Source: a virus
Lineage: Duplodnaviria; Heunggongvirae; Uroviricota; Caudoviricetes
Direction: 5' to 3' (one strand)
DNA: 51,169 nucleotides
IMG/VR virus record: IMGVR_UViG_2526164628_000012
The notes under the pieces were generated by a model. The model worked only from the letters and a program-made list of their open reading frames with translations, did not search any database and was not told the DNA's origin. The position numbers were made by a program, and so were the translations under genes. Positions 1,422 through 34,778 of the stretch are shown one piece after another. The first letter of the stretch is position 1. Every line of letters starts with the position of its first letter.

Positions 1422-3893
1422 TTAAAAATCAGCCTGATTCGGGATCAGTTTTTGCCAGATAACTGAAACGTATTTTGCCTGGTAACGGGCGTCATCAAGT
1501 GCATTATGGCGCTCACCTTCGAATGGAATAGCCGTTCTGGCATCGAAGTCTATGGCTTTCCCCAGCTCAACGATTGTGCGTACATCGCGATCGTTGTAGT
1601 AACGCCACGGGCAGGGGATCCCCTGCCGTTCGTATGAACGGCGCAAAATCGTGTTGTCGAAGTTGGCTCCATTTCCCCAGACCTGAACAAAAAATTCACC
1701 GGAGTTTTCGTCGATAAATTCCCGCAATTGTAACAGTGCATCATCTAACGGGATTTCATCGGTCATAATGGCAGACTGCGCTTCACGTGATTGCTTCAGC
1801 CACCTTTTAATGACGTCACGATCAATGACTCCGCCAGCAGTTTCCAGATCGATAGTCTTACTAAATTCCGGTCCCATATCTCCGGTTTGCGGATCGAAAA
1901 ATATTGCACCTATTGAGATAATCGGGGCATCAGGATTTTTTCCCATGGTTTCAAGGTCGATCATTAGATGGTCACACGTCCTGCTGGTGGATGTGATAAC
2001 GTGATGACCGTTCATCGCAATTAAGGGATCTGCCGTCTCGCCAGTTTCACTATCGCTGGCGTGATCCTGAGCGCTACCAGCATTCTCCTTGTGTGGATGT
2101 TCAGCGCCTTCGATTTCCTTCGGATCATTTTCCTGAACTTCAACCTGATTCTCTTCATCGAATGTTTCCTGGTATGTTGCGTCACCCATCACCGCGCCAC
2201 AATCAGGGCAGTTGCCGCCACCGCTTTGACCGCAGGCGGTGCAGACTTTTTCCGGTTCCTGTTGCGCTACTGGCTCAGGTTGTTTCGTTTCTGGCTCGTT
2301 TTGTTGCGTATTTGGGCTGTTTTGTTCCGCTTTCTGGTCGTTCTGTTCCGATTCTTGCTGGTTCTGGTTTACAGAATCGCGGGTTTCAATCCCCTTTACC
2401 CATTTCGGATCATTCGGGTCGCTAATCCCTGCAACAAATTCTCCGCGAGAGGCAGCAAGCAACTTATCGGCGTCAGGCTGGCTGATATTGGCTGCCTGCA
2501 TAATTTTGTTTACTTCGTCAGCGGTAACTTTTACCGGCTCTGGTTGTGCGGTCGTGTCAGATGCACCAGTATTTTGTTGTGAACCTGAGTACGTGCCGTT
2601 TTTACGTGCGAAGTATTCCTCTTTTGTGATTTCCGTAGCTCCCAGGGCTAGTGCTTTTTCCAGACCAGAAAGTTTGTTTGCGCGACCGTATTTTTCGCCA
2701 TCCTTGTCGGTGAAGAGGAAGTAGAACGGCCCCTCACGCTCTACAGATGGTTCGACTTCCACTTTGCATTCGGTTTTTTCGTTGCCCGGAATTGCCGTTT
2801 CCACTGCATCAGTTTCTGGTACTGGCGACGAGAGAGTATCAGTTGCGCTCTGATTTCTTCCTTCATCTTCAAACACGCCCTTTGTAGTCAGGTATTCAGT
2901 AATGTATTTGTTCAGTGCCACAGGGTCTTTGTGAATGTCGATCGGACGTTCACGGACAAGGCCAAAAATAGTCTGGCGGTCGTAGCGAAGGGCATCAGGC
3001 TGTTTGCGCATTGATGCCGAGATACGCTTCCAGTCTTCGCGGTCGTTGTCGATAACTTCATTTTTTGCCCAGCGATGGATGCTGCCGTCAATGTTTCCGG
3101 CATCCACATCACCAGGCCAGAGAGCGTAGGCCAGTTCGTCATCCAGTGTTTTCCATGTCTGCTTGTATTCGCGATGAATGGCAGCAATGACCGGGCTGAT
3201 TTTTCCTGTTGAATTTTCACTGTGCTGTTGATTGGTTCTGGCGCGGGCGAGATCAACAACAGACGTGTATTTTCCGGTTTCCTTGCGTTCACCTTCGCGA
3301 CGTTTTTTCCAGATGCGCATCTCTGCCTGAATTTCGGGCCATTTGGCACCAGGCTTACATTTATGCTTAACCCACCCGATGGCATGCAGCTTAAGCTCCG
3401 GATACATGGCGTTAACTTCTGGCATTTTCATCAACGCTTCAACGATATGTCCGTCGAATGTTGCCATGTCTTCCTGCAACAATTCCTGTGCGCTAATAAC
3501 CATATCAACGGTGATGTTTTCACATGTGTCGAACTTAACCATGACAGCGTTCTGTACTTCAGGGGCCAGCTTGTCAAAAGTGACGTTCATCGGATCGGAT
3601 TCAGTCTCAACCGGGACAAAGGAAGCAGACTCCTCATCCCAGCGGTTTTCCTGCATATATTCAGCATCCCAGGAATCGAGGGCAGGGCGGGGTATACCGG
3701 GTTTATCCTCGCAGACAAGAAATTTATAAGCGCAGTCCTGAGCAGCCGGATAATGTTCCAGGAATTGCCAGTGAAATTTTGCGCGGGCGCGACGTTCATC
3801 ACCGGCTTCAATGGCAGTGGCTACAGCGACGGCACCTTCTTCCTTTATTGCCTGTTCGTCCGGAATGGCGGCGCAAATAAAGACTTTACTCAT
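1422..3893 (-). CDS. Exodeoxyribonuclease VIII-like protein, 823 aa, C-terminal DnaQ/DEDDh-type exonuclease domain
   Basis: Long ORF; C-terminal region (MIDLETMG...HNALDDARY) looks like a DEDD 3'-5' exonuclease; central Gln-rich low-complexity stretch and CxxC...CxxC motif; position between xis and dicB as in Qin/Rac-type prophages. Confidence 0.7.
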   Translation of the reverse strand: MSKVFICAAIPDEQAIKEEGAVAVATAIEAGDERRARAKFHWQFLEHYPAAQDCAYKFLVCEDKPGIPRPALDSWDAEYMQENRWDEESASFVPVETESDPMNVTFDKLAPEVQNAVMVKFDTCENITVDMVISAQELLQEDMATFDGHIVEALMKMPEVNAMYPELKLHAIGWVKHKCKPGAKWPEIQAEMRIWKKRREGERKETGKYTSVVDLARARTNQQHSENSTGKISPVIAAIHREYKQTWKTLDDELAYALWPGDVDAGNIDGSIHRWAKNEVIDNDREDWKRISASMRKQPDALRYDRQTIFGLVRERPIDIHKDPVALNKYITEYLTTKGVFEDEGRNQSATDTLSSPVPETDAVETAIPGNEKTECKVEVEPSVEREGPFYFLFTDKDGEKYGRANKLSGLEKALALGATEITKEEYFARKNGTYSGSQQNTGASDTTAQPEPVKVTADEVNKIMQAANISQPDADKLLAASRGEFVAGISDPNDPKWVKGIETRDSVNQNQQESEQNDQKAEQNSPNTQQNEPETKQPEPVAQQEPEKVCTACGQSGGGNCPDCGAVMGDATYQETFDEENQVEVQENDPKEIEGAEHPHKENAGSAQDHASDSETGETADPLIAMNGHHVITSTSRTCDHLMIDLETMGKNPDAPIISIGAIFFDPQTGDMGPEFSKTIDLETAGGVIDRDVIKRWLKQSREAQSAIMTDEIPLDDALLQLREFIDENSGEFFVQVWGNGANFDNTILRRSYERQGIPCPWRYYNDRDVRTIVELGKAIDFDARTAIPFEGERHNALDDARYQAKYVSVIWQKLIPNQADF

Positions 3894-3985
3894 TTTGTTT
3901 TACCTCATTACAGATTTAAGGGTGAACAAATCCCTGCCATTGCTGGCATATAAGAATGAAACCGGATATTTATTACGGAACTGTT

Positions 3986-4177
3986 TTAAAGACCTGCCGG
4001 GATTTCGTTATTATCCTGGTGAATAACTTTATCGACCGGGTAACAGTTACCGGGAATTTTCTGTTCGGTTGCTGCAGTCACACACTCCTGCATTGTCCTG
4101 TGAACACTGACTGCAATATCAACTGGCTCTCCGGAAACAAGAAAAACTGTCAGAACAAGTGCAAATGCTGTATTCAT
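3986..4177 (-). CDS. ydfD: YdfD-like small membrane (lysis) protein, 63 aa
   Basis: ATG overlaps dicB stop (ATGA); N-terminal hydrophobic segment MNTAFALVLTVFLVSG; matches recalled Qin YdfD size and sequence. Confidence 0.55.
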   Translation of the reverse strand: MNTAFALVLTVFLVSGEPVDIAVSVHRTMQECVTAATEQKIPGNCYPVDKVIHQDNNEIPAGL

Positions 4178-5797: not shown

Positions 5798-7369
5798 TTA
5801 CTGAGAGCTCAGATCAACTTTCCAGGGCAACAGATCGCGTACCCGGTTTGCCGGCCAGTCCTGGATATGTTCAATGACGTAGCGCAGCCACTTTTCTGGC
5901 TCCACATTGTTCAGACGGCATGTGCCGATCAGCGAGTACAACACCGCCGCATGTTCACCACCGCTGTCGGAACCCGCGAACATCCAGTTTTTCCGGCCTA
6001 CGGCCACTCCCCGTAAGGCGTTCTCTGCGATGTTGTTGTCGATTTCCACCCAGCCATTACTGCAGTACACGTTCAGTGCATCCCACTGTTTCAGCAGGTA
6101 TGCGAACGCTTTTGCCGTATCTGAGTGACGCGACAGTGTTTTCATCTGTTGCTGTATCCAGTCATACAGTGACTGCATCAGTGGCGCGGCTCTGGTTTTT
6201 CTTGCCGCCAGACGCTGTTCTGCTGAACAGCCCCGGACCTCTGCCTCGATGGCATACAGTTCACCGATACGCTGCAGGGCTTCCGTGGTGATGTCGGTGG
6301 GCGCTCTTGCATGCACATCGTGGATTTTTCTCCGGGCATGAGCCATACACGCGGCTTCCGTTATTCTGCCGGATTCGTATAACGCCCGGTAACCACCGTA
6401 AGCATCGGCCTGAAGCACACCGCTGTAACCGGCCAGGTGATTTTGTGGATGGATACCTTTCCGGTCCGGACTGTACGCGAACCAGACCGCCGGGGGCATC
6501 TGTGAACCGGCGTTACGGTCATCACGGACGTAGACCCACAGCCGGGCTGTCCGGGTTTTACCGCTGCCCGGCTCCTGGACCGGGACGGGGATATCATCAG
6601 CATGGACTTTACCGGGCATCAGCACATACTGGCGCAGGACGTCATACAGCGGCTCCAGTAGTTCAGCAACGGCACCTGTCCAGCGCCCCAGTGTGGCACG
6701 GCTCAGCTCCACACCCTGACGGCGGTATATCTCTGACTGGCGGTATAACGGCAGATGGTCTGCATATTTTCCGGTGACGACATGGGCCAGGAGCCCCGCT
6801 CCGGCATAACTGCGTGCAATGGGTTTTGAAGGTACTGGTGCCTGCACGATATGGTCGCACCGACAACAGGCCAGTTTCGGACGTTGTGTTTCGATAACCT
6901 TAAAGGCGCTGCTGATAAGCTCCAGTTGCTCTGACACATCACATCCCAGAGAACTGAGTTCACCACCACAGGCAGGACAGCATTCCTCTTCCGGCCGGAT
7001 AACCCGGGTTTCACGGGGAAGTGAGGCCGGTAACGGTTTACGGGCTGAAGACTGGCGCAGGGCGGATGGCAGTACCGGGTCATATTGCTCACCCAGCGTT
7101 TCCGCCATTTCTTCCTGAAGTGCGCTGATTCGCTCCTGTGCTTCCTGTATCTGCCGTTCGGTTTTTGCACGAAGTTTTTCTGAGCTTTTACCGAACTGCA
7201 TACGTTGCAGTTTCGCAACCAGCGCCTTCAGCCGGTTGATTTCGGAAGCATAAGCCGCCACCCGCTGTGAGAGCAGGCGGTTGTATTCAGCCATCTGGCG
7301 TATGGTGTCCTGTTGCGTCTGCAACAGTGCCCGCAGGCGGGCGTTCTCATGAGCAAGTGAGGTGTCCAT
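5798..7369 (-). CDS. IS66-family transposase (orf3/TnpC), 523 aa
   Basis: Characteristic IS66 transposase length and arrangement; identical protein in second copy. Confidence 0.85.
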
Positions 7370-7388
7370 ATCCTCACTTTACAACGGG

Positions 7389-7736
7389 TTATATGCGGAT
7401 TCCAGCGCGTTCCGTTCGTTTCGGGTGCTTCCAGTTGATACCTTCAAGAAGCATGGATAACTGAGCCGGAGTAAGGTGCACCTTGCCGTCACGGGTGACT
7501 GGCCAGACGAAGCGGCCCCGCTCCAGGCGTTTGGTGAAGAGGCACAGTCCGTCACTGTCAGCCCACAACACTTTTATCTGGTCACCCCGGCGTCCGCGGA
7601 AGATGAACAGGTGTCCGGAGAACGGGTCATCCTTCAGGACGTTCTGAACTTTTGATGCCAGGCCGTTAAAGCCATTTCGCATATCGGTGATACCTGCAAC
7701 CAGCCAGATACGCGAACCTGCAGGGAGAGATATCAT
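7389..7736 (-). CDS. IS66-family Orf2 (TnpB), 115 aa
   Basis: Middle ORF of IS66 three-gene arrangement. Confidence 0.8.
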   Translation of the reverse strand: MISLPAGSRIWLVAGITDMRNGFNGLASKVQNVLKDDPFSGHLFIFRGRRGDQIKVLWADSDGLCLFTKRLERGRFVWPVTRDGKVHLTPAQLSMLLEGINWKHPKRTERAGIRI

Positions 7737-8413
7737 CAGTGGCTGCTCCCTTTTATTTCGCGGATAAGTGTCTGTAATAACGCCGGCGTCAGTTTACCTT
7801 TAAGCCTGAGAGTTCCGGCCGGCAGAACCAGCTCACAACACAGACTGTCGGACGGTGTATTTATCTGCTCTGGTTCCTGTGCGGGGGCCGGGATTTTATT
7901 ATCCGGCTCCGGCGTTAACGTCACGGGAAGCAGTGCCGGCATATTTTTTCCGGAAGGCAGCAGGCCACCTTTCCGGTATTGATGGCGCCAGTTGAAGAGC
8001 AGGTTATCGTTGATTCCGTTTTCCCGGGCGATCTGCGCCACACAGGCTCCGGGCTGCAGTGACTGCTCCACTAAGGCGATTTTAAACTCATAAGGGAAGT
8101 TGGGCCGCCGGGGACGTTTTTTTACCACGGGGGCTTCGGATATAACGGTGCTTTCAGGACGTACGACTGGTACCGTGGAAAATTGTCCGTAAAGGCAGGC
8201 ATCAAGTTCCTGCTCCGACATGCCTGCGGGCAAAGGCCACGAAAGGCCAGCTCTCCGAAAGCGCACGAACATACTACAAACTGTTGATTTTGGTACACCC
8301 AGGCGACGCCCGGCCACAACCCGGGGTAAATGTTCTTCAAAGTGAAGACGTAAAGCTTCAGTGATCCAGGTCCGGTGTTTCATACGATAGTGTCCATTAA
8401 AAATGATGGACAT
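7736..8413 (-). CDS. IS66-family Orf1 (TnpA), 225 aa
   Basis: First ORF of IS66 arrangement; overlaps orf2 start. Confidence 0.8.
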   Translation of the reverse strand: MSIIFNGHYRMKHRTWITEALRLHFEEHLPRVVAGRRLGVPKSTVCSMFVRFRRAGLSWPLPAGMSEQELDACLYGQFSTVPVVRPESTVISEAPVVKKRPRRPNFPYEFKIALVEQSLQPGACVAQIARENGINDNLLFNWRHQYRKGGLLPSGKNMPALLPVTLTPEPDNKIPAPAQEPEQINTPSDSLCCELVLPAGTLRLKGKLTPALLQTLIREIKGSSH

Positions 8414-8618
8414 TATTTTTGTAGAGCCGGAGGAAACAGACCAGACGGTTTAAATGAGCCGGTTACGAACAAAAACCTGCTGCATAGTTATTAAAGTTGA
8501 ACCCTGCCGTCATGTTCTTACGCCTCGGGCTGGCTACTTAACCCCTGACCACTGCCTGGTAACTCGAAGTATTGCCCTGCATTCTGTGGGGCGGGGGGGG
8601 TTGGTATGAAAAGAAGGA

Positions 8619-8655
8619 TACCCATAGGTATTTAAAAAGTAAATACCCATGGGTA
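8619..8655. promoter_or_regulatory. Two palindromic operator-like sites TACCCATAGGTA and TACCCATGGGTA
   Basis: Two 12-bp TACC-N4-GGTA palindromes about 25 bp apart, downstream of the repressor gene and upstream (before IS insertion) of ydfA-DicF-dicB. Confidence 0.4.
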
Positions 8656-8697
8656 AATTTTTGCGGTGTCTTAACTGGTGACTAGTTGTTTGGTGAG

Positions 8698-9116
8698 CTA
8701 TGATGCGTTTTGTGCTTTCTTTTTACGGATTTCTTCGTAGATCATATTGTAATACTGTTTTTTCTCTTCAAGAGTTTTTAATAATTTATCCGCTTCACTT
8801 TCTGGCAGTTCGTCTAAGAGATCTAAAAAAATACGTTGTCGTGGCGTTAGAACCCTTGTTTCATAACTGGAGGCTGTGTTCGTTGATGATGAAACGATAC
8901 CATCCATCCATCCCCGGGGTAACCCAAAGGACTCTTCGATAATCTCCACCATATCATCAGCGATCCGTTTTTTCCCTTTTTCCCCTCTGGGTACAACATT
9001 CTTGATACATAAGAAGGCTCGCGCCCGATCTTTCTGGCCACGTTAACCGCTTTACCATCGCATTTCTCATCACGAATTTTGATGAGTTGCTGTCGTCTAA
9101 ATTCATATTTGTCCAT
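8698..9116 (-). pseudogene. DicA/CI-like HTH repressor, frameshifted
   Basis: Two overlapping ORFs (8847-9116 and 8698-8952) form one repressor-like protein if one base is added to the A6 run in GGGAAAAAAC (plus-strand T6 near 8967-8972); C-terminus resembles DicA. Confidence 0.55.
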
Positions 9117-9136
9117 AGGTAAATAATAGATGCGAT

Positions 9137-9187
9137 TACCGCAAGGTAAACAACCTGTGGGTATTGACTTTTGTTTACCTGTGGGTA
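9137..9187. promoter_or_regulatory. Divergent promoter/operator region with three TACC-N4-GGTA-type sites
   Basis: TACCGCAAGGTA (9137-9148), AACCTGTGGGTA (9152-9163), TACCTGTGGGTA (9176-9187) between divergent repressor and cro-like genes. Confidence 0.45.
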
Positions 9188-9216
9188 TTCTTTGCTGTGT
9201 TTACTAAGGAGTAGCT

Positions 9217-9498
9217 ATGGAAGAATTAAGAATATTTCTCAATTCTCTTTCGTCAGATGAACAGCGTATGTTTGCATGCGAGTGTGGTACCAGCATCGGT
9301 TATCTAAGAAAGGCATTGAGTAAAGGTCAAGTGTTAGGGGCATCGTTATGTGTCCTTATTGAGCGAGCCAGTAATGGTGAAGTTACACGTCAGCAACTAA
9401 GGCCTTTTGATTGGATGAATATTTGGCCCGAGCTGGAAGATACCAAAACGTTAACACAACCACTTTCTAGGAGCTTGATTCATGAAAATCAAGCATGA
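9217..9498 (+). CDS. Cro/DicC/YdaS-like HTH regulator, 93 aa
   Basis: Divergent from repressor; motif pattern resembles DicC/YdaS family. Confidence 0.6.
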   Translation: MEELRIFLNSLSSDEQRMFACECGTSIGYLRKALSKGQVLGASLCVLIERASNGEVTRQQLRPFDWMNIWPELEDTKTLTQPLSRSLIHENQA

Positions 9499-9907
9499 AC
9501 ACATCCGCATGGCGATGAATGTCTGGGCGCATCCGGACGGCGAAAAAGTGCCGGCTGCGAAAATTACCAAAGCGTATTTCGAGCTGGGAATGACGTTCCC
9601 GGAACTGTATGACGACAGCCATCCGGAAGCCCTGGCCCGTAATACCCAGAAAATTTTCCGTTGGCTGGATAAAGACACCCCTGATGCTGTTGAAAAAATG
9701 CAGGCTCTGTTACCGGCGATCGAAAAGGCGATGCCGCCTTTGCTGGTGGCCCGTATGCGTAGCCACAGTTCTGAATATTACCGTGATATCGTCGAACGGA
9801 GGGATCGGCTGGTGAAGGATGTCGATGATTTTGTTGCGTCAGCGGTTGTTTTGTATGACCAGATGAATCGCGGCGGCCCGGCAGGGAATGCTGTGGTGAT
9901 GCACTAA
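9482..9907 (+). CDS. YdaT-like protein (CII-analogue position), 141 aa
   Basis: N-terminus MKIKHEHI and C-terminal VVMH resemble recalled Rac YdaT; follows the cro-like gene as in Rac. Confidence 0.55.
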   Translation: MKIKHEHIRMAMNVWAHPDGEKVPAAKITKAYFELGMTFPELYDDSHPEALARNTQKIFRWLDKDTPDAVEKMQALLPAIEKAMPPLLVARMRSHSSEYYRDIVERRDRLVKDVDDFVASAVVLYDQMNRGGPAGNAVVMH

Positions 9908-9914
9908 AAGCACG

Positions 9915-10892
9915 GTGTTCGGGGGTTTTATGAGCAGCAAGCTTCATGGTCTTGTCTGGGAAGGGTGCGCCTTCACCGGCATGATCTTATCCAGGGTGGC
10001 GGTTATGGCCCGTCTTGCAGACTACAGCAATGACGAGGGCGTGTCATGGCCTGCCATTGAAACTATCCGGCGTCAGATCGGTGCAAGAAGTGAATCCACA
10101 GTGAAATCGGCTATTGCAGAACTGGCGAAAGAGGGCTGGCTGACGAAGGAAGAGCGTAAGGTCGGTGGGCGTAATGTAAGCAATATCTATCGGCTTAATG
10201 TGGAAAAACTCGAAGCAGCTGCGGCGGCGGCGCGTGAGTCATATAAACCGAAAAGAAAAATTAGCCCGGCAAAAAATGACCCGTTAACAGTTGACCCGTC
10301 AAATATTGACCCCTCAACGGTTGACCCGTCAAATTTTGATGGATCAACTGTTGATAAAAAACTGCCGATTAGGGGGCCGATGATTGACCCCGATCCGTCA
10401 GTATTAAAACCTGATCCGTCAGATAAAAGATCTTCTTGTCCGGACGCTTCGCAACCGGACCCGCAGACGGCTGAACAGGATTTTTTAACCCGACACCCTG
10501 ACGCGGTTGTGTTCAGTGCGAAAAAACGCCAGTGGGGAAGTCAGGAAGATTTGGTGTGCGCACAGTGGATCTGGGGACGAATCGTGAGTCTTTACGAGCA
10601 GGCGGCCAGCTATGATGGCGAGATCACTAGACCGAAAGAACCCAACTGGACAGCATGGGCCAATGACGTTCGCACAATGCGGATGCTGGATGGCAGAACT
10701 CACAGACAAATTTGTGAAATGTTTGGGCGTCTCCAGCGGGATTCGTTCTGGGTAAAAAACATCATGAGTCCGGCAAAACTCCGGGAAAAATGGGATGAAC
10801 TGGTTATCCGCCTGGGGCGTTCGCCTGCGCAGCGTTGCGTGAATCACATTTCTGAACCGGACACTGAAATTCCGCCGGGCTTCAGGGGGTAA
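9915..10892 (+). CDS. Replication initiator (O-like) with embedded origin iterons
   Basis: Winged-helix-like N-terminus; internal 15-bp iterons encode VDPSN peptide repeats; probable true start ATG 9930. Confidence 0.6.
   Translation: MFGGFMSSKLHGLVWEGCAFTGMILSRVAVMARLADYSNDEGVSWPAIETIRRQIGARSESTVKSAIAELAKEGWLTKEERKVGGRNVSNIYRLNVEKLEAAAAAARESYKPKRKISPAKNDPLTVDPSNIDPSTVDPSNFDGSTVDKKLPIRGPMIDPDPSVLKPDPSDKRSSCPDASQPDPQTAEQDFLTRHPDAVVFSAKKRQWGSQEDLVCAQWIWGRIVSLYEQAASYDGEITRPKEPNWTAWANDVRTMRMLDGRTHRQICEMFGRLQRDSFWVKNIMSPAKLREKWDELVIRLGRSPAQRCVNHISEPDTEIPPGFRG
10277..10425 (+). repeat. Origin-like iterons: TGACCCNTNAAC repeated at 15-bp spacing plus additional GATCCGTCAG repeats
   Basis: Direct repeats at 10277, 10292, 10307, 10322 (and degenerate 10337), further repeats 10383-10421, inside the initiator gene as in lambda O/ori. 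Confidence 0.5.
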
Positions 10893-10932
10893 GTGTTAAT
10901 TTCTGGTCATGAGGTAATTTTCAGGAGGGCTT

Positions 10933-11355
10933 GTGGCAAAAGTTTTTACACAAGAAGAGCGGGAAAAAATTAAAGGGCAGGTTGTTGAACTCGTACGCCA
11001 GAGTGGGCGCGAGACGTTACGACAACTGGAAACTAAAACTGGGGCAACAAGATATCTGATGAGCGTTCTGGCCAGAGAGCTGGTTGCCAGTGGCGATGTA
11101 TACAACTCTGGTTACGGGTTATTCCCGTCTGAACAGGCGCGTAAGGACTGGCAAAATGCCCGTAAAAAGCTCTCAAGGGCAAAGCTGAAGAAACCATCTG
11201 CGGTTGATCCGGACCTTATCTGGTCATTACCTGACGGAGAAATACGTCGCTACGACAGGCGCCTAAACATAATCTGTCGCGAGTGCCGGAAGAGTGAAGC
11301 TATGCAGCGTGTACTGGCGTTTTATCAGGGGAATTTTGAGGAGGTGGTGCGGTGA
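10933..11355 (+). CDS. Hypothetical phage protein, 140 aa
   Basis: ORF following replication initiator; no Walker motifs seen. Confidence 0.45.
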   Translation: MAKVFTQEEREKIKGQVVELVRQSGRETLRQLETKTGATRYLMSVLARELVASGDVYNSGYGLFPSEQARKDWQNARKKLSRAKLKKPSAVDPDLIWSLPDGEIRRYDRRLNIICRECRKSEAMQRVLAFYQGNFEEVVR

Positions 11356-11606
11356 GTGAATCAAAATGCCAGGTTAATGGCAACAAGATAGAACCATGTG
11401 CAGCACTGGCAAAGTCCCTTGAGCGTGATGCTGAATACACGATGCGAAAAGGTCTGCTGATATACAAAATCTGGAATGAGAGTTTAACTCGCGGTCCTGA
11501 TTTTGTGATGTTGCGTTCCGGTGAATTTTCTAAATTACCAGTTCGGGTTTCATTTTGTCCGTTCTGTGGTGAAAGTCTGAAAACGTGGGAGAACAGAAAT
11601 GAATGA
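11352..11606 (+). CDS. Hypothetical protein, 84 aa, CxxC-containing
   Basis: Overlapping start/stop with neighbours; C-terminal CPFCGE motif. Confidence 0.45.
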   Translation: MSESKCQVNGNKIEPCAALAKSLERDAEYTMRKGLLIYKIWNESLTRGPDFVMLRSGEFSKLPVRVSFCPFCGESLKTWENRNE

Positions 11607-11910
11607 AATTAAAGAAATACCAGTAGTACGTGATGAATATGGCTACTGGACGCATCCTGAATATGAAAAATTCTGTGACGGTCGGGAATATATTTCAACG
11701 GAAGAGTTTAACGCCTGGATGGAGGAAAATAATCTTCAATACGTCCTCTGCTTCAGAGATGAAGGATGTGCTGACCTTGATGCGTGTGATGCTGATATTT
11801 CTGCATGGGAACCGGAACGACCAGAGGGCAATGGATGGTTTATTGGTTCAATACATGACACCGAAGATGGCCCGGTTTGTGTATGGCTGAGAAATAAGGC
11901 CGAAGCATAA
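11599..11910 (+). CDS. Hypothetical protein, 103 aa, Cys-rich
   Basis: ORF in nin-like small-gene array. Confidence 0.45.
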   Translation: MNEIKEIPVVRDEYGYWTHPEYEKFCDGREYISTEEFNAWMEENNLQYVLCFRDEGCADLDACDADISAWEPERPEGNGWFIGSIHDTEDGPVCVWLRNKAEA

Positions 11911-12038
11911 AGGCTATAAACCGACTAACAACTAAATACTGAAGATTTAAATCAGAAACGATTTTTATTAAATCCTTAACCGGAGGGATTCCTGCACCCT
12001 CAGAACATCAGGAGGCCGTCCGAAAGGGCGGTAGTGAA

Positions 12039-12221
12039 ATGCGAAAATTCAAAATAATTATTGAAACGGGAATAGCCGGTGGAGATTTCGAGGATGAATT
12101 CGAAGTGGATGATGATGCAACACCAGATGAAATACAGGATGAAGCTAAAGATATTTTCTTTAACTACTGCAATTACTCATACCACGAAATAAAAGACGAA
12201 GAGGAAGAACAAAATGGCTGA
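12039..12221 (+). CDS. Very acidic small protein, 60 aa (candidate DNA mimic)
   Basis: About one third Asp/Glu (DFEDEFEVDDDATPDEIQDEAKD...EEEEQ); RBS GGAGG upstream. Confidence 0.4.
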   Translation: MRKFKIIIETGIAGGDFEDEFEVDDDATPDEIQDEAKDIFFNYCNYSYHEIKDEEEEQNG

Positions 12222-12390
12222 TTTTGGTTCAACTAAATATAACGCCAGTTTTGAAGAATGGCATGAACTGTTAATGGATTATGCAGAGTTACGCGGTGGA
12301 AGTGCCGCTGATGCTGAAGCATGGCGTGATGATTATGAAGCAGGGAAAACACCGGTCGAAGCATATTGTGATGAGTGGGGCGATGAATGA
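12214..12390 (+). CDS. Acidic small protein, 58 aa
   Basis: Hand-found ORF MADFGSTKYNASFEEWHELLMDYAELRGGSAADAEAWRDDYEAGKTPVEAYCDEWGDE; overlaps neighbours at both ends; below track threshold. Confidence 0.3.
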   Translation: MADFGSTKYNASFEEWHELLMDYAELRGGSAADAEAWRDDYEAGKTPVEAYCDEWGDE

Positions 12391-12746
12391 GCGAGATTAA
12401 TTATCAGGAAGGGCATGAAAAGGCAGGGCAGGCAAAACCAGTGGCATGGCGATATCGCTACGTGAAAAAAGGCGTTACAGACTTTCAGGGGAAGCAGTGG
12501 GTTGGTGACTGGAAATATGTCCCGACAAAAGAGGATTGTAACGACAGACCAAACTATGAAATTCAGGCGTTATTCACGGCCCCGCCAGCTTCGGTGACAT
12601 CAGAAGGACTGGTTAAAGCTGTGCGCTTTTATGAACAGGTACGGCGTGAGGATCCGCCAGTTGAAACCGGAGCATGGAAAGACGCTATTGACTGGGTACT
12701 CAAGGAGGCCTGCCTGGTTGTAAACACGGGCATCAAAGGAGGCTGA
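12387..12746 (+). CDS. Hypothetical protein, 119 aa
   Basis: ORF in nin-like array, start overlaps previous stop. Confidence 0.45.
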   Translation: MSEINYQEGHEKAGQAKPVAWRYRYVKKGVTDFQGKQWVGDWKYVPTKEDCNDRPNYEIQALFTAPPASVTSEGLVKAVRFYEQVRREDPPVETGAWKDAIDWVLKEACLVVNTGIKGG

Positions 12747-12962
12747 ATGGGTATTGCCGCAAGTTATACCATGCATCTCTATTGTGATTGCCGCCAGTGT
12801 ACGGATGGCAAATATCAGTCGCCAGATTTTGGTGAGTATATCGGTACGTCATGGGCTGGCTGTGCAAAAGAGGCACGTAAAGATGGGTGGCGAATAAGTG
12901 CCGACAAAACGCGTGCTTTTGCGCCAGGGCATAAAATTTTGAGGAGCAACAAAGGAGAGTGA
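12747..12962 (+). CDS. Hypothetical Cys-rich protein, 71 aa
   Basis: ORF in array. Confidence 0.4.
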   Translation: MGIAASYTMHLYCDCRQCTDGKYQSPDFGEYIGTSWAGCAKEARKDGWRISADKTRAFAPGHKILRSNKGE

Positions 12963-12963
12963 T

Positions 12964-13182
12964 GTGCCTACATTATTCAGAAAAGAATATCCGCGAAAAA
13001 GTAGAGCGACAGAATTTTTGTTTCTCATTCTGTTTATCGTGTTGATGATACCGATATCCCCGTTAATTCTGGTATGGGGAATCGGAAAAATAATTGAGCC
13101 AGTTATTGAATTGTATAACGACGTGGTATGGGCTCCGTTCAACACACTGCACAATAAAATTAATCCGTATAAGGAAAACTGA
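12964..13182 (+). CDS. Small membrane protein, 72 aa
   Basis: Long hydrophobic segment FLFLILFIVLMIPISPLILVWGIG; AT-rich. Confidence 0.4.
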   Translation: MPTLFRKEYPRKSRATEFLFLILFIVLMIPISPLILVWGIGKIIEPVIELYNDVVWAPFNTLHNKINPYKEN

Positions 13183-13183
13183 T

Positions 13184-13447
13184 ATGGCAACTTTGACAAA
13201 AAAAGAACAGGCATGGTTGAACGAATTACAGGACGTTCTTGATCGCTGTCCATCACCGAAAAAAATTGGTTTTTACACCATTGGCGATAAAAGCATTTAC
13301 CTGTATGACCTGCGCCGCATGGATGAAATCATGGAGGCTCTTGATAATCGTTCGTCAATGGATTGGTGTGTTGCTGTCCATGATATGAATGCAGGGTTTG
13401 ATGAAAAGATTTTGTTCCCCTCATCAGTTGAAAGCACTGCGGGTTAA
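13184..13447 (+). CDS. Hypothetical protein, 87 aa
   Basis: ATG 13184 directly after previous stop; track ORF 13094-13447 trimmed to this start. Confidence 0.4.
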   Translation: MATLTKKEQAWLNELQDVLDRCPSPKKIGFYTIGDKSIYLYDLRRMDEIMEALDNRSSMDWCVAVHDMNAGFDEKILFPSSVESTAG

Positions 13448-13457
13448 GGAGTAACAC

Positions 13458-13625
13458 ATGACCACTATTACCAAAGAACGTATTGAATTGTTCATTAAAA
13501 ACCCGCTTGAAAACGGGCTTACCCGTGGTGAACAAATGGAACTGGCACGGATTGCGCTGGCATCGCTGGAAGCAGAGCCGGTTGTGTTCTGGTTTGAAAA
13601 ATATCAAGAAGGTGCTACGGCATGA
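13458..13625 (+). CDS. Hypothetical protein, 55 aa
   Basis: Hand-found [58 protein letters not shown]; N-terminus similar to next gene. Confidence 0.3.
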
Positions 13626-13966
13626 CGACTTTTACCAGAGAGCAGTTAATAGCTCACGCAGAGGAGACTATTGAAGCACAGAGACTGTGCATACCGGGCA
13701 CAATCGACCATGACATCATCCGCACATATAAGATGGATATTGCTGTTCTGGAAATCGCACTGGTATCGCTGGCAGCAGAGCCAGCCGGTAAATTGCATGA
13801 ATACAAACCAGTGGGATATCAGCGTCTGGTCGATGAGTTAACCATGCTGGTAAAGCAGTTAACCTGGCAACTGAGGAAAGCGAAGCCAGACTGCAAATTA
13901 CCGGATAAGGCGATGAGTTATCTGGAGCGGAACGGACTGATAAGCGTGGAGGATATTTTACGATGA
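13622..13966 (+). CDS. Hypothetical protein, 114 aa
   Basis: ORF, ATGA overlap with previous. Confidence 0.45.
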
Positions 13967-14046: not shown

Positions 14047-14257
14047 AAACGGTTTGCGGGAAAAGGAGAGTTAAGTAGAATTGCAGCGGGTGCTTGAGGC
14101 TATCTGTCTCAGGCATGAACACCAAAAGGCAGATAGAGAAAAGCCCCAGTTAACATTACGCGTCCGGCAAGACGCTTAACATTAATCTGAGGCCATATCT
14201 ATGCTCTACACACGTAGGTTAGCCTCTTACGTGCCGAAAGGCAAGGAGAAGCAGGCT

Positions 14258-14413
14258 ATGAAGCAGCAAAAGGCGATGCTAATCGCCCTGATCGTCATCT
14301 GTTTAACCGTCATTGTGACGGCACTGGTAACGAGGAAAGACCTCTGCGAGGTACGAATCCGAACCGGCCAGACGGAGGTCGCTGTCTTCACAGCTTACGA
14401 ACCTGAGGAGTAA
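14258..14413 (+). CDS. hok: Hok/Gef-family type I toxin, 51 aa
   Basis: MKQQKAMLIALIVICLTVIVTALVTRKDLCEVRIRTGQTEVAVFTAYEPEE matches the Hok family (HokD/RelF-like); terminator follows. Confidence 0.8.
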   Translation: MKQQKAMLIALIVICLTVIVTALVTRKDLCEVRIRTGQTEVAVFTAYEPEE

Positions 14414-14483
14414 GAGACCTGGCGGGGGAGAAATCCCTCGCCACCTCTGATGTGTCAGGCATCCTCAACGCACCCGCACTTAA

Positions 14484-14508
14484 CCCGCTTCGGCGGGTTT
14501 TGTTTTTT
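14484..14508 (+). terminator. Rho-independent terminator after hok
   Basis: CCCGCTTCGGCGGG hairpin followed by TTTTGTTTTTT. Confidence 0.6.
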
Positions 14509-32162: not shown

Positions 32163-33734
32163 TTACTGAGAGCTCAGATCAACTTTCCAGGGCAACAGAT
32201 CGCGTACCCGGTTTGCCGGCCAGTCCTGGATATGTTCAATGACGTAGCGCAGCCACTTTTCTGGCTCCACATTGTTCAGACGGCATGTGCCGATCAGCGA
32301 GTACAACACCGCCGCATGTTCACCACCGCTGTCGGAACCCGCGAACATCCAGTTTTTCCGGCCTACGGCCACTCCCCGTAAGGCGTTCTCTGCGATGTTG
32401 TTGTCGATTTCCACCCAGCCATTACTGCAGTACACGTTCAGTGCATCCCACTGTTTCAGCAGGTATGCGAACGCTTTTGCCGTATCTGAGTGACGCGACA
32501 GTGTTTTCATCTGTTGCTGTATCCAGTCATACAGTGACTGCATCAGTGGCGCGGCTCGGGTTTTTCTTGCCGCCAGACGCTGTTCTGCTGAACAGCCCCG
32601 GACCTCTGCCTCGATGGCATACAGTTCACCGATACGCTGCAGGGCTTCCGTGGTGATGTCGGTGGGCGCTCTTGCATGCACATCGTGGATTTTTCTCCGG
32701 GCATGAGCCATACACGCGGCTTCCGTTATTCTGCCGGATTCGTATAACGCCCGGTAACCACCGTAAGCATCGGCCTGAAGCACACCGCTGTAACCGGCCA
32801 GGTGATTTTGTGGATGGATACCTTTCCGGTCCGGACTGTACGCGAACCAGACCGCCGGGGGCATCTGTGAACCGGCGTTACGGTCATCACGGACGTAGAC
32901 CCACAGCCGGGCTGTCCGGGTTTTACCGCTGCCCGGCTCCTGGACCGGGACGGGGATATCATCAGCATGGACTTTACCGGGCATCAGCACATACTGGCGC
33001 AGGACGTCATACAGCGGCTCCAGTAGTTCAGCAACGGCACCTGTCCAGCGCCCCAGTGTGGCACGGCTCAGCTCCACACCCTGACGGCGGTATATCTCTG
33101 ACTGGCGGTATAACGGCAGATGGTCTGCATATTTTCCGGTGACGACATGGGCCAGGAGCCCCGCTCCGGCATAACTGCGTGCAATGGGTTTTGAAGGTAC
33201 TGGTGCCTGCACGATATGGTCGCACCGACAACAGGCCAGTTTCGGACGTTGTGTTTCGATAACCTTAAAGGCGCTGCTGATAAGCTCCAGTTGCTCTGAC
33301 ACATCACATCCCAGAGAACTGAGTTCACCACCACAGGCAGGACAGCATTCCTCTTCCGGCCGGATAACCCGGGTTTCACGGGGAAGTGAGGCCGGTAACG
33401 GTTTACGGGCTGAAGACTGGCGCAGGGCGGATGGCAGTACCGGGTCATATTGCTCACCCAGCGTTTCCGCCATTTCTTCCTGAAGTGCGCTGATTCGCTC
33501 CTGTGCTTCCTGTATCTGCCGTTCGGTTTTTGCACGAAGTTTTTCTGAGCTTTTACCGAACTGCATACGTTGCAGTTTCGCAACCAGCGCCTTCAGCCGG
33601 TTGATTTCGGAAGCATAAGCCGCCACCCGCTGTGAGAGCAGGCGGTTGTATTCAGCCATCTGGCGTATGGTGTCCTGTTGCGTCTGCAACAGTGCCCGCA
33701 GGCGGGCGTTCTCATGAGCAAGTGAGGTGTCCAT
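32163..33734 (-). CDS. IS66-family transposase (orf3/TnpC), 523 aa
   Basis: Identical protein to copy 1. Confidence 0.85.
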
Positions 33735-33753
33735 ATCCTCACTTTACAACGGG

Positions 33754-34101
33754 TTATATGCGGATTCCAGCGCGTTCCGTTCGTTTCGGGTGCTTCCAGT
33801 TGATACCTTCAAGAAGCATGGATAACTGAGCCGGAGTAAGGTGCACCTTGCCGTCACGGGTGACTGGCCAGACGAAGCGGCCCCGCTCCAGGCGTTTGGT
33901 GAAGAGGCACAGTCCGTCACTGTCAGCCCACAACACTTTTATCTGGTCACCCCGGCGTCCGCGGAAGATGAACAGGTGTCCGGAGAACGGGTCATCCTTC
34001 AGGACGTTCTGAACTTTTGATGCCAGGCCGTTAAAGCCATTTCGCATATCGGTGATACCTGCAACCAGCCAGATACGCGAACCTGCAGGGAGAGATATCA
34101 T
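33754..34101 (-). CDS. IS66-family Orf2 (TnpB), 115 aa
   Basis: Identical to copy 1. Confidence 0.8.
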   Translation of the reverse strand: MISLPAGSRIWLVAGITDMRNGFNGLASKVQNVLKDDPFSGHLFIFRGRRGDQIKVLWADSDGLCLFTKRLERGRFVWPVTRDGKVHLTPAQLSMLLEGINWKHPKRTERAGIRI

Positions 34102-34778
34102 CAGTGGCTGCTCCCTTTTATTTCGCGGATAAGTGTCTGTAATAACGCCGGCGTCAGTTTACCTTTAAGCCTGAGAGTTCCGGCCGGCAGAACCAGCTCA
34201 CAACACAGACTGTCGGACGGTGTATTTATCTGCTCTGGTTCCTGTGCGGGGGCCGGGATTTTATTATCCGGCTCCGGCGTTAACGTCACGGGAAGCAGTG
34301 CCGGCATATTTTTTCCGGAAGGCAGCAGGCCACCTTTCCGGTATTGATGGCGCCAGTTGAAGAGCAGGTTATCGTTGATTCCGTTTTCCCGGGCGATCTG
34401 CGCCACACAGGCTCCGGGCTGCAGTGACTGCTCCACTAAGGCGATTTTAAACTCATAAGGGAAGTTGGGCCGCCGGGGACGTTTTTTTACCACGGGGGCT
34501 TCGGATATAACGGTGCTTTCAGGACGTACGACTGGTACCGTGGAAAATTGTCCGTAAAGGCAGGCATCAAGTTCCTGCTCCGACATGCCTGCGGGCAAAG
34601 GCCACGAAAGGCCAGCTCTCCGAAAGCGCACGAACATACTACAAACTGTTGATTTTGGTACACCCAGGCGACGCCCGGCCACAACCCGGGGTAAATGTTC
34701 TTCAAAGTGAAGACGTAAAGCTTCAGTGATCCAGGTCCGGTGTTTCATACGATAGTGTCCATTAAAAATGATGGACAT
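34101..34778 (-). CDS. IS66-family Orf1 (TnpA), 225 aa
   Basis: Identical to copy 1. Confidence 0.8.
   Translation of the reverse strand: MSIIFNGHYRMKHRTWITEALRLHFEEHLPRVVAGRRLGVPKSTVCSMFVRFRRAGLSWPLPAGMSEQELDACLYGQFSTVPVVRPESTVISEAPVVKKRPRRPNFPYEFKIALVEQSLQPGACVAQIARENGINDNLLFNWRHQYRKGGLLPSGKNMPALLPVTLTPEPDNKIPAPAQEPEQINTPSDSLCCELVLPAGTLRLKGKLTPALLQTLIREIKGSSH

Follow-up and report, generated by a model that had tools for sequence, protein, structure and literature searches.

Proteins of phages T7 and lambda, together with ArdA, offer the closest described comparisons for ORF60 and ORF58, two very acidic proteins encoded next to each other in an Escherichia coli lambdoid prophage of the Rac/Qin type. 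T7 gp5.9 is a 52-amino-acid acidic RecBCD inhibitor and DNA mimic that forms a helical coiled-coil dimer, and it resembles both proteins in its size, in a pI of about 4 and in its early expression. T7 Ocr shares the pI of about 4 and has an equal density of charge (-0.24 per residue, compared with -0.25 for ORF60 and -0.21 for ORF58); the value for gp5.9 is -0.15. ArdA is common to phages and conjugative plasmids, as is the ORF58 family, and lambda Gam, Ral and the small nin and ea proteins are encoded in the same kind of place as the pair, among the delayed-early accessory genes of a lambdoid phage. An earlier sequence-only reading of the 51,169-nucleotide stretch analysed here (the window) had picked out two overlapping, highly acidic small ORFs at 12039-12390 and had suggested that they may be DNA mimics directed against host defences, an idea that is plausible but unproven.

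Position of the two genes in the prophage

Both ORFs lie where they had been placed, on the + strand, and share an 8-nt overlap, ATGGCTGA, read directly from the sequence (Table 1). They belong to a chain of small ORFs with overlaps of 8 or 4 nt, or no space at all, between neighbours, the sole break being a 128-nt gap 5' of ORF60, and the coupled array that the sequence-only reading had described in a nin-like region is thus borne out. Every member of the chain matches a PHROG family to which PHROG assigns no function. In RefSeq an identical stretch is annotated, in order, with a LexA-family repressor, Cro, a YdaT-family protein, an HTH replication protein, DUF977, the run of small genes and then hokD, DUF968, RusA and an antiterminator. 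With the replication genes on one side of the chain and hok/sok, DUF968, RusA and the antiterminator on the other, the region qualifies as nin-like, and ORF60 and ORF58 fall within the delayed-early nin-like section of the rightward operon. The 128-nt gap contains no RNA family found with Rfam and has an unremarkable RNA fold (z-score -1.65), and promoter and terminator scans gave scores no better than those of shuffled sequences.

Table 1. Coordinates in the window of the two genes, their translation signals and other features mentioned in the text.
Feature	Position	Strand	Remarks
Small early ORF chain containing ORF60 and ORF58	11352-13966	+	From ORF coordinates, RefSeq annotation of an identical locus and PHROG matches
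ORF103	11599-11910		Just upstream of ORF60
ORF60 leader	12010-12038	+	AGGAGG 12010-12015; hairpin CCGTCC-GAAA-GGGCGG 12016-12031; 7-nt spacer; ATG
ORF60	12039-12221	+	60 aa; DUF7167 family; net charge -15
ORF58 coupling junction	12200-12221	+	AGAGGA 12200-12205 in Glu codons of the ORF60 tail; ATGGCTGA overlap 12214-12221
ORF58	12214-12390	+	58 aa; unnamed family (phrog_519); net charge -12
ORF119	12387-12746		Partial phrog_660 match
ORF55	13458-13625		Partial phrog_660 match
ORF114	13622-13966		Partial phrog_660 match
hok/sok module	14088-14263		Rfam sok, 117 bits
isrK-like match	14422-14503		Weak, 27 bits, below threshold
Terminator-like hairpin	14482-14499		Strong; end of the isrK-like match
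ORF set, first copy	5798-8413	-	523, 115 and 225 aa
ORF set, second copy	32163-34778	-	523, 115 and 225 aa

Both ORFs are genes under purifying selection

The 551 bp around ORF60 and ORF58 were matched in 2385 of 5426 complete E. coli genomes (about 44%), and the exact ORF60 protein and the exact ORF58 protein each occur on at least 1000 contigs. When diverged alleles with a dS of 0.2-0.6 were taken as the comparison set, ORF60 showed 8-9 synonymous changes and 1 non-synonymous change and ORF58 showed 7-14.5 synonymous and 1-9.5 non-synonymous changes, which corresponds to a dN/dS of 0.02-0.17 for the two ORFs. The ratio did not exceed 0.27 against Klebsiella and Enterococcus-phage homologues and spanned 0.02-0.27 for ORF60 and 0.03-0.24 for ORF58 over all comparisons. 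Both are real genes under purifying selection, and the conservation on which the sequence-only reading had staked its proposal is evident from these ratios and from homologues found across genera.

Translation signals, which that reading had also regarded as decisive, can be read in front of each gene. ORF58 has AGAGGA 8 nt before its ATG in addition to the start/stop overlap, and the same ATGGCTGA overlap recurs on IncI2 and Klebsiella plasmids, where the genes upstream of the ORF58 relatives are unrelated. The arrangement before ORF60 is less usual in that AGGAGG stands 23 nt upstream and is followed by a hairpin, with a 6-bp stem and a GAAA loop, and a further 7 nt before the ATG. This leader is present in every E. 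coli allele, Stx-phage copies with otherwise unrelated upstream DNA among them; the only variation in the stem is T/C at a G-U/G-C position, besides which there is one loop change. More distant ORF60 homologues have an ordinary Shine-Dalgarno sequence in place of the hairpin leader. In gene 38 of phage T4 the Shine-Dalgarno sequence is brought to normal spacing by a hairpin, and by analogy the ORF60 hairpin may bring AGGAGG to an effective spacing of 7 nt and so create a split ribosome-binding site.

Very short ORFs of no known function in a mosaic region might be suspected of being selectively neutral filler or simply mis-called, but this explanation is effectively refuted by the conservation data, since dN/dS is low, the cores of both families are retained among members that are only 35-60% identical and the AlphaFold2 (AF2) models of the two proteins are confident (pLDDT 88-89).

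Acidity is a property of both families

Calculation of pI and charge, which the sequence-only reading had put forward as a check, gave a pI of 4.05 for both proteins, alongside the net charges in Table 1. Asp and Glu account for 20 of the 60 residues of ORF60 (33.3%), slightly fewer than the 35% or so previously estimated, while the acidic runs noted at the time are present (EDE18-20, DDD24-26 and DEEEE53-57); the overlapping ORF58, correctly described as acidic, has 16 such residues in 58 (27.6%). In all six frames the window contains 297 ORFs of 50 aa or more, whose Asp/Glu content averages 6.3% (sd 5.1); by this measure ORF60 ranks first among them and ORF58 second. ORF103, just upstream of ORF60, matches phrog_1372 and no Pfam family; with 24% Asp/Glu and a net charge of -17 it is the third most acidic of the 297, so that the three most acidic ORFs of the window are contiguous.

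Strong negative charge is a family-wide trait in both cases: net charge runs from -6 to -16 (mean -12.8) among members of the ORF60 family and from -4 to -15 (mean -9.8) among those of the ORF58 family. Within the predicted strands and helices of both families, acidic and hydrophobic columns take turns, a periodicity expected of solvent-facing positions, which shows solvent exposure only. The strong net negative charge and pI near 4 by which DNA mimics are recognized are found in both proteins.

ORF60 is a DUF7167 protein of replication and recombination regions

By profile match ORF60 is a full-length member of the Pfam family DUF7167 (PF23768; 54.5 bits, cut-off 24.4), with residues 2-53 covering profile positions 1-60 of 60. 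It also matches phrog_1997 (E 2.7e-30), and the identical protein is labelled 'DUF7167 family protein' in RefSeq. Relatives with as little as about 45% identity were retrieved by profile from Klebsiella, Citrobacter, Yersinia, Pseudomonas and metagenomes, and tblastn added further ones in Klebsiella and Enterococcus phages; records of ORF60 number 35 in phages and 15 in plasmids. Nearly invariant positions are R2, F4, I8, F21, V23, D25-D26-A27-T28, I32, A36, F40, C44, Y46 and E50. The AF2 model, built from a 41-sequence alignment (pLDDT 88), predicts strands at 2-8 and 17-23 and a helix at 29-43, with low confidence for the C-terminal segment that bears the acidic tail. BFVD returned only uncharacterized phage proteins for ORF60.

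DUF7167 genes are always found among early replication and recombination genes. In the Guernseyvirinae (Klebsiella phages) the gene lies directly upstream of a 454-aa PD-(D/E)XK exonuclease gene and overlaps its start, and the exonuclease gene in turn adjoins that of a gp2.5-like annealing protein. The overlapping genes occupy 2501-4025 in two extracted Klebsiella Guernseyvirinae loci; positions 960-2007 of a further extracted locus served for comparison. On a podovirus contig the DUF7167 gene overlaps the start of an SNF2 helicase gene, and in P22-like prophages it stands in the early-left operon between Dam and a homologue of the DNA polymerase III theta subunit, after Arf-Erf-SSB. The gene 3' of DUF7167 encodes a Cys-rich 70-aa protein in Klebsiella, a coiled-coil protein in Yersinia and a membrane protein in Pseudomonas.

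This setting gives rise to the main rival of an inhibitory function, namely that the two proteins serve the DNA replication or recombination machinery of the element itself, as its accessory subunits or as regulators such as a modulator of an exonuclease, helicase or SSB, and are not inhibitors of host defence. The position of DUF7167 within replication and recombination modules, overlapping the start of an exonuclease or a helicase in some phages and following Erf and SSB in others, would fit such a role, as would the location of the pair after the replication genes in the window. Acidic tails are moreover known to dock onto DNA-binding proteins, the C-termini of SSB and T7 gp2.5 being examples. 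However, no one partner is conserved, the adjoining enzyme being a different one in each lineage, and the E. coli copies are mobile, occurring in the nin-like region and, in Stx phages, in the early-left one. Members of the ORF58 family are also carried by plasmids and by large virulent phages, whose replication systems are quite different. On balance we consider a role in the element's own machinery unlikely.

ORF58 belongs to a family of phages and conjugative plasmids

ORF58 has no match in Pfam or NCBIfam. It matches phrog_519 (E 8.5e-23), a family of 261 phage proteins with no assigned function, and because it covers only positions 76-137 of the 143 in the profile it represents the bare core domain of that family. 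An exhaustive HMMER scan of 1.84 billion protein representatives yielded 61 relatives, each of which is a cluster representative. W37 is invariant in the family and F13, W16, Y41 and G44 are nearly so. The AF2 model (pLDDT 89) predicts a Trp-cored three-helix bundle with helices at 13-26, 34-42 and 47-55.

Relatives of ORF58 occur in 198 phage records, which include virulent Kuttervirus and 157-kb Klebsiella phages, and on 554 plasmids, of which 516 are conjugative and mostly IncI2. The homologue is a backbone gene of the IncI2 plasmids of about 60 kb. On one of these, NZ_CP024156.1, which carries mcr-1, it is 86% identical to ORF58 and directly follows DUF1187. The apparent operon there consists of a CaiF/GrlA-type regulator, DUF1187, the ORF58-like gene, SPFH and NfeD (8348-10980 of the extracted locus). 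According to a gene table that is incomplete, about 15 kb with genes in mixed orientation separate the ORF58-like gene from mobC/oriT, and the missing relaxase gene would lie on the other side of mobC. A 49%-identical relative on a large Klebsiella plasmid lies in a co-directional run, about 20 kb long, of small uncharacterized genes; the plasmid relatives are preceded by DUF1187 or by a membrane protein gene. Occurrence on conjugative plasmids and in virulent phages would suit a factor that is useful to any incoming DNA.

Two phage records with matches deserve a comment. An 'Actinobacillus phage' (PP818812.1) contains the E. coli ORF60/ORF58 module at 95% DNA identity and an 'Enterococcus phage' of 111 kb (OR844942.1) contains a Kuttervirus-type ORF58 homologue; in both the host label or the assembly looks doubtful.

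Another possibility is that proteins of the ORF58 family are anti-CRISPR proteins. They are small, acidic and encoded on mobile elements, and Kuttervirus members of phrog_519 have been scored as candidate anti-CRISPRs by the machine-learning method PaCRISPR (PMC9409062). That score is a prediction, however, no Aca-type regulator was noted beside any of the ORF58-family copies examined, and the gene is present in a large fraction of E. coli genomes even though the I-E system is normally silent in this species (PMC12248084). We regard an anti-CRISPR function as improbable.

The two genes are independent modules

At each of the 81 loci where ORF60 is 98-100% identical, ORF58 follows with the same 8-nt overlap while the flanking genes are shuffled, as expected of accessory genes that persist while their flanks change. 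Stx2 phages, ArgO145 for example, have the pair in their early-left region. This constancy could be taken to mean that ORF60 and ORF58 form one functional unit, either a two-gene system or a heterodimer. However, adjacency is seen only where ORF60 is 98-100% identical, that is, in closely related E. coli prophage DNA, and recent common descent of that DNA explains the linkage. Elsewhere, in Klebsiella, Yersinia, Pseudomonas, Guernseyvirinae, Enterococcus phages, IncI2 plasmids and Kuttervirus, the DUF7167 and ORF58 families are apart: the distant DUF7167 genes in the first three genera and in the Guernseyvirinae and Enterococcus phages precede unrelated genes, and the plasmid relatives of ORF58 follow other genes, as described above. 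The numbers of phage and plasmid records are likewise unequal for the two families, and pairing is disfavoured by the strong negative charge of both proteins. A single unit is thus very improbable, and the pair as one system was rejected on synteny. A split or fused form of the 143-position phrog_519 protein, considered separately, was also rejected as ORF60 matches phrog_1997 only.

ORF60 and ORF58 are independent modules that, as it happens, are linked in one lineage of E. coli DNA, and the conserved pairing that the sequence-only reading had implied does not hold beyond that lineage. That the genes are real and at the same time independent is a conclusion we hold with high confidence.

Relationship to characterized inhibitors

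When the PDB sequences (all chains) were searched with single sequences and profiles, a scope that for the HMM search would include the solved DNA mimics, nothing was found below an E value of 0.08 for either protein. Comparison of both family alignments by hhalign with 22 small proteins of T7 and lambda gave no probability above 1.7%. The sequences of this panel, taken from GenBank records, were Ocr, gp0.4, gp1.2, gp2, gp4.5, gp5.5, gp5.7 and gp5.9 of T7 and Gam, Kil, cIII, Ea10, Ea8.5, Ral, orf61, orf63, orf60a, NinD, NinE, NinF, NinH and Ren of lambda; ArdA lay outside it. Profile similarity to either family was therefore absent from lambda Gam, Ral, Kil, cIII, Ea8.5, Ea10, NinD, NinE, NinF, NinH and Ren, despite the niche that the lambda proteins share with the pair. 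ORF60 also differs from gp5.9, to which its hhalign probability is below 2%, in that its predicted fold is a beta-hairpin with a helix. PADLOC defence models gave no match at E ≤0.1 for ORF60, ORF58 or three neighbours, and no published function for either family was found in the literature searched, including the supplements of an accessory-gene screen; DUF7167 is not named in any of the papers covered. There is thus no link of homology or fold to any characterized DNA mimic, anti-restriction protein or inhibitor. The two sequences are not new to the databases: they are listed under DUF7167 and phrog_519, and thousands of genomes have them annotated as uncharacterized.

A proposed mode of action

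We propose that ORF60 and ORF58 are two independent accessory binder proteins, and put the probability of this full explanation at about 0.4. As part of the translationally coupled chain, both would be produced from the rightward operon early in the lytic cycle, and each would be a minimal single-domain fold in which a small hydrophobic or aromatic core is covered by a carboxylate surface. Each protein might then bind stoichiometrically to the basic nucleic-acid-binding surface of a host protein, or of a protein from a competing element, and act as a decoy in the way that small DNA-mimic inhibitors do. Candidate targets are enzymes of restriction or of another defence, nucleases (RecBCD, for instance) and nucleoid proteins. 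We infer both this binding-inhibitor mechanism and the class of target; blockage of such a basic surface in a host protein is a tentative proposal, with the odds somewhat against it. The structured core is only 45-50 residues in each case, and oligomers would be needed to present a DNA-like surface.

Since the ORF58 family is shared by phages, both temperate and virulent, and by conjugative plasmids, its target would be expected to be one that any DNA entering the Enterobacterales meets. For DUF7167, the T7 GenBank record shows gp5.9 upstream of the gene 6 exonuclease, the same position that DUF7167 has in the Guernseyvirinae. In view of this parallel a nuclease or RecBCD-type target is an attractive guess, but a weak one given that the neighbour of DUF7167 is not conserved. 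A more specific version of the proposal would make the ORF58 family, which phages of the temperate and the large virulent kind share with IncI2 and further conjugative plasmids of Enterobacterales, an unrecognized establishment or anti-defence factor with a new Trp-cored acidic three-helix fold, and DUF7167 an analogue of gp5.9, a host-nuclease inhibitor that accompanies phage recombination modules. We consider it rather unlikely that both parts of this version are correct.

Besides the small cores and the absence of homology or fold similarity to characterized inhibitors, three further considerations speak against an inhibitory function. Acidity by itself is weak evidence, many small phage proteins being acidic for reasons that are not understood; no conserved neighbour indicates a target; and the IncI2 setting, with a regulator, SPFH and NfeD and some 15 kb away from mobC/oriT, is not a classic anti-restriction context. 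The observation of two exceptionally acidic small proteins is sound, and the decoy interpretation, reasonable but unverified, is offered as a reasoned hypothesis.

If either protein does prove to be an inhibitor, a new and very small fold would be added to the acidic decoy proteins, and the two together would be small acidic decoys of mobile elements with folds absent from the solved examples. A function would also have been given to genes that about 44% of complete E. coli genomes contain. As the ORF58 family is found on hundreds of IncI2 plasmids, the one examined carrying mcr-1, its activity could bear on the establishment of these plasmids in new hosts.

Other features of the window

Downstream of ORF58, three members of the small-gene chain, ORF119, ORF55 and ORF114, match different parts of phrog_660, and the last two also match phrog_60. 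These matches suggest that these ORFs are shuffled pieces of modular proteins of the Ea22/DUF551 type. The hok/sok module follows the chain, and downstream of it is the weak isrK-like match that ends in a terminator-like hairpin (Table 1). Two minus-strand sets of ORFs with identical lengths, one in the early region and the other among the tail genes, resemble a single IS66-type insertion sequence present twice.
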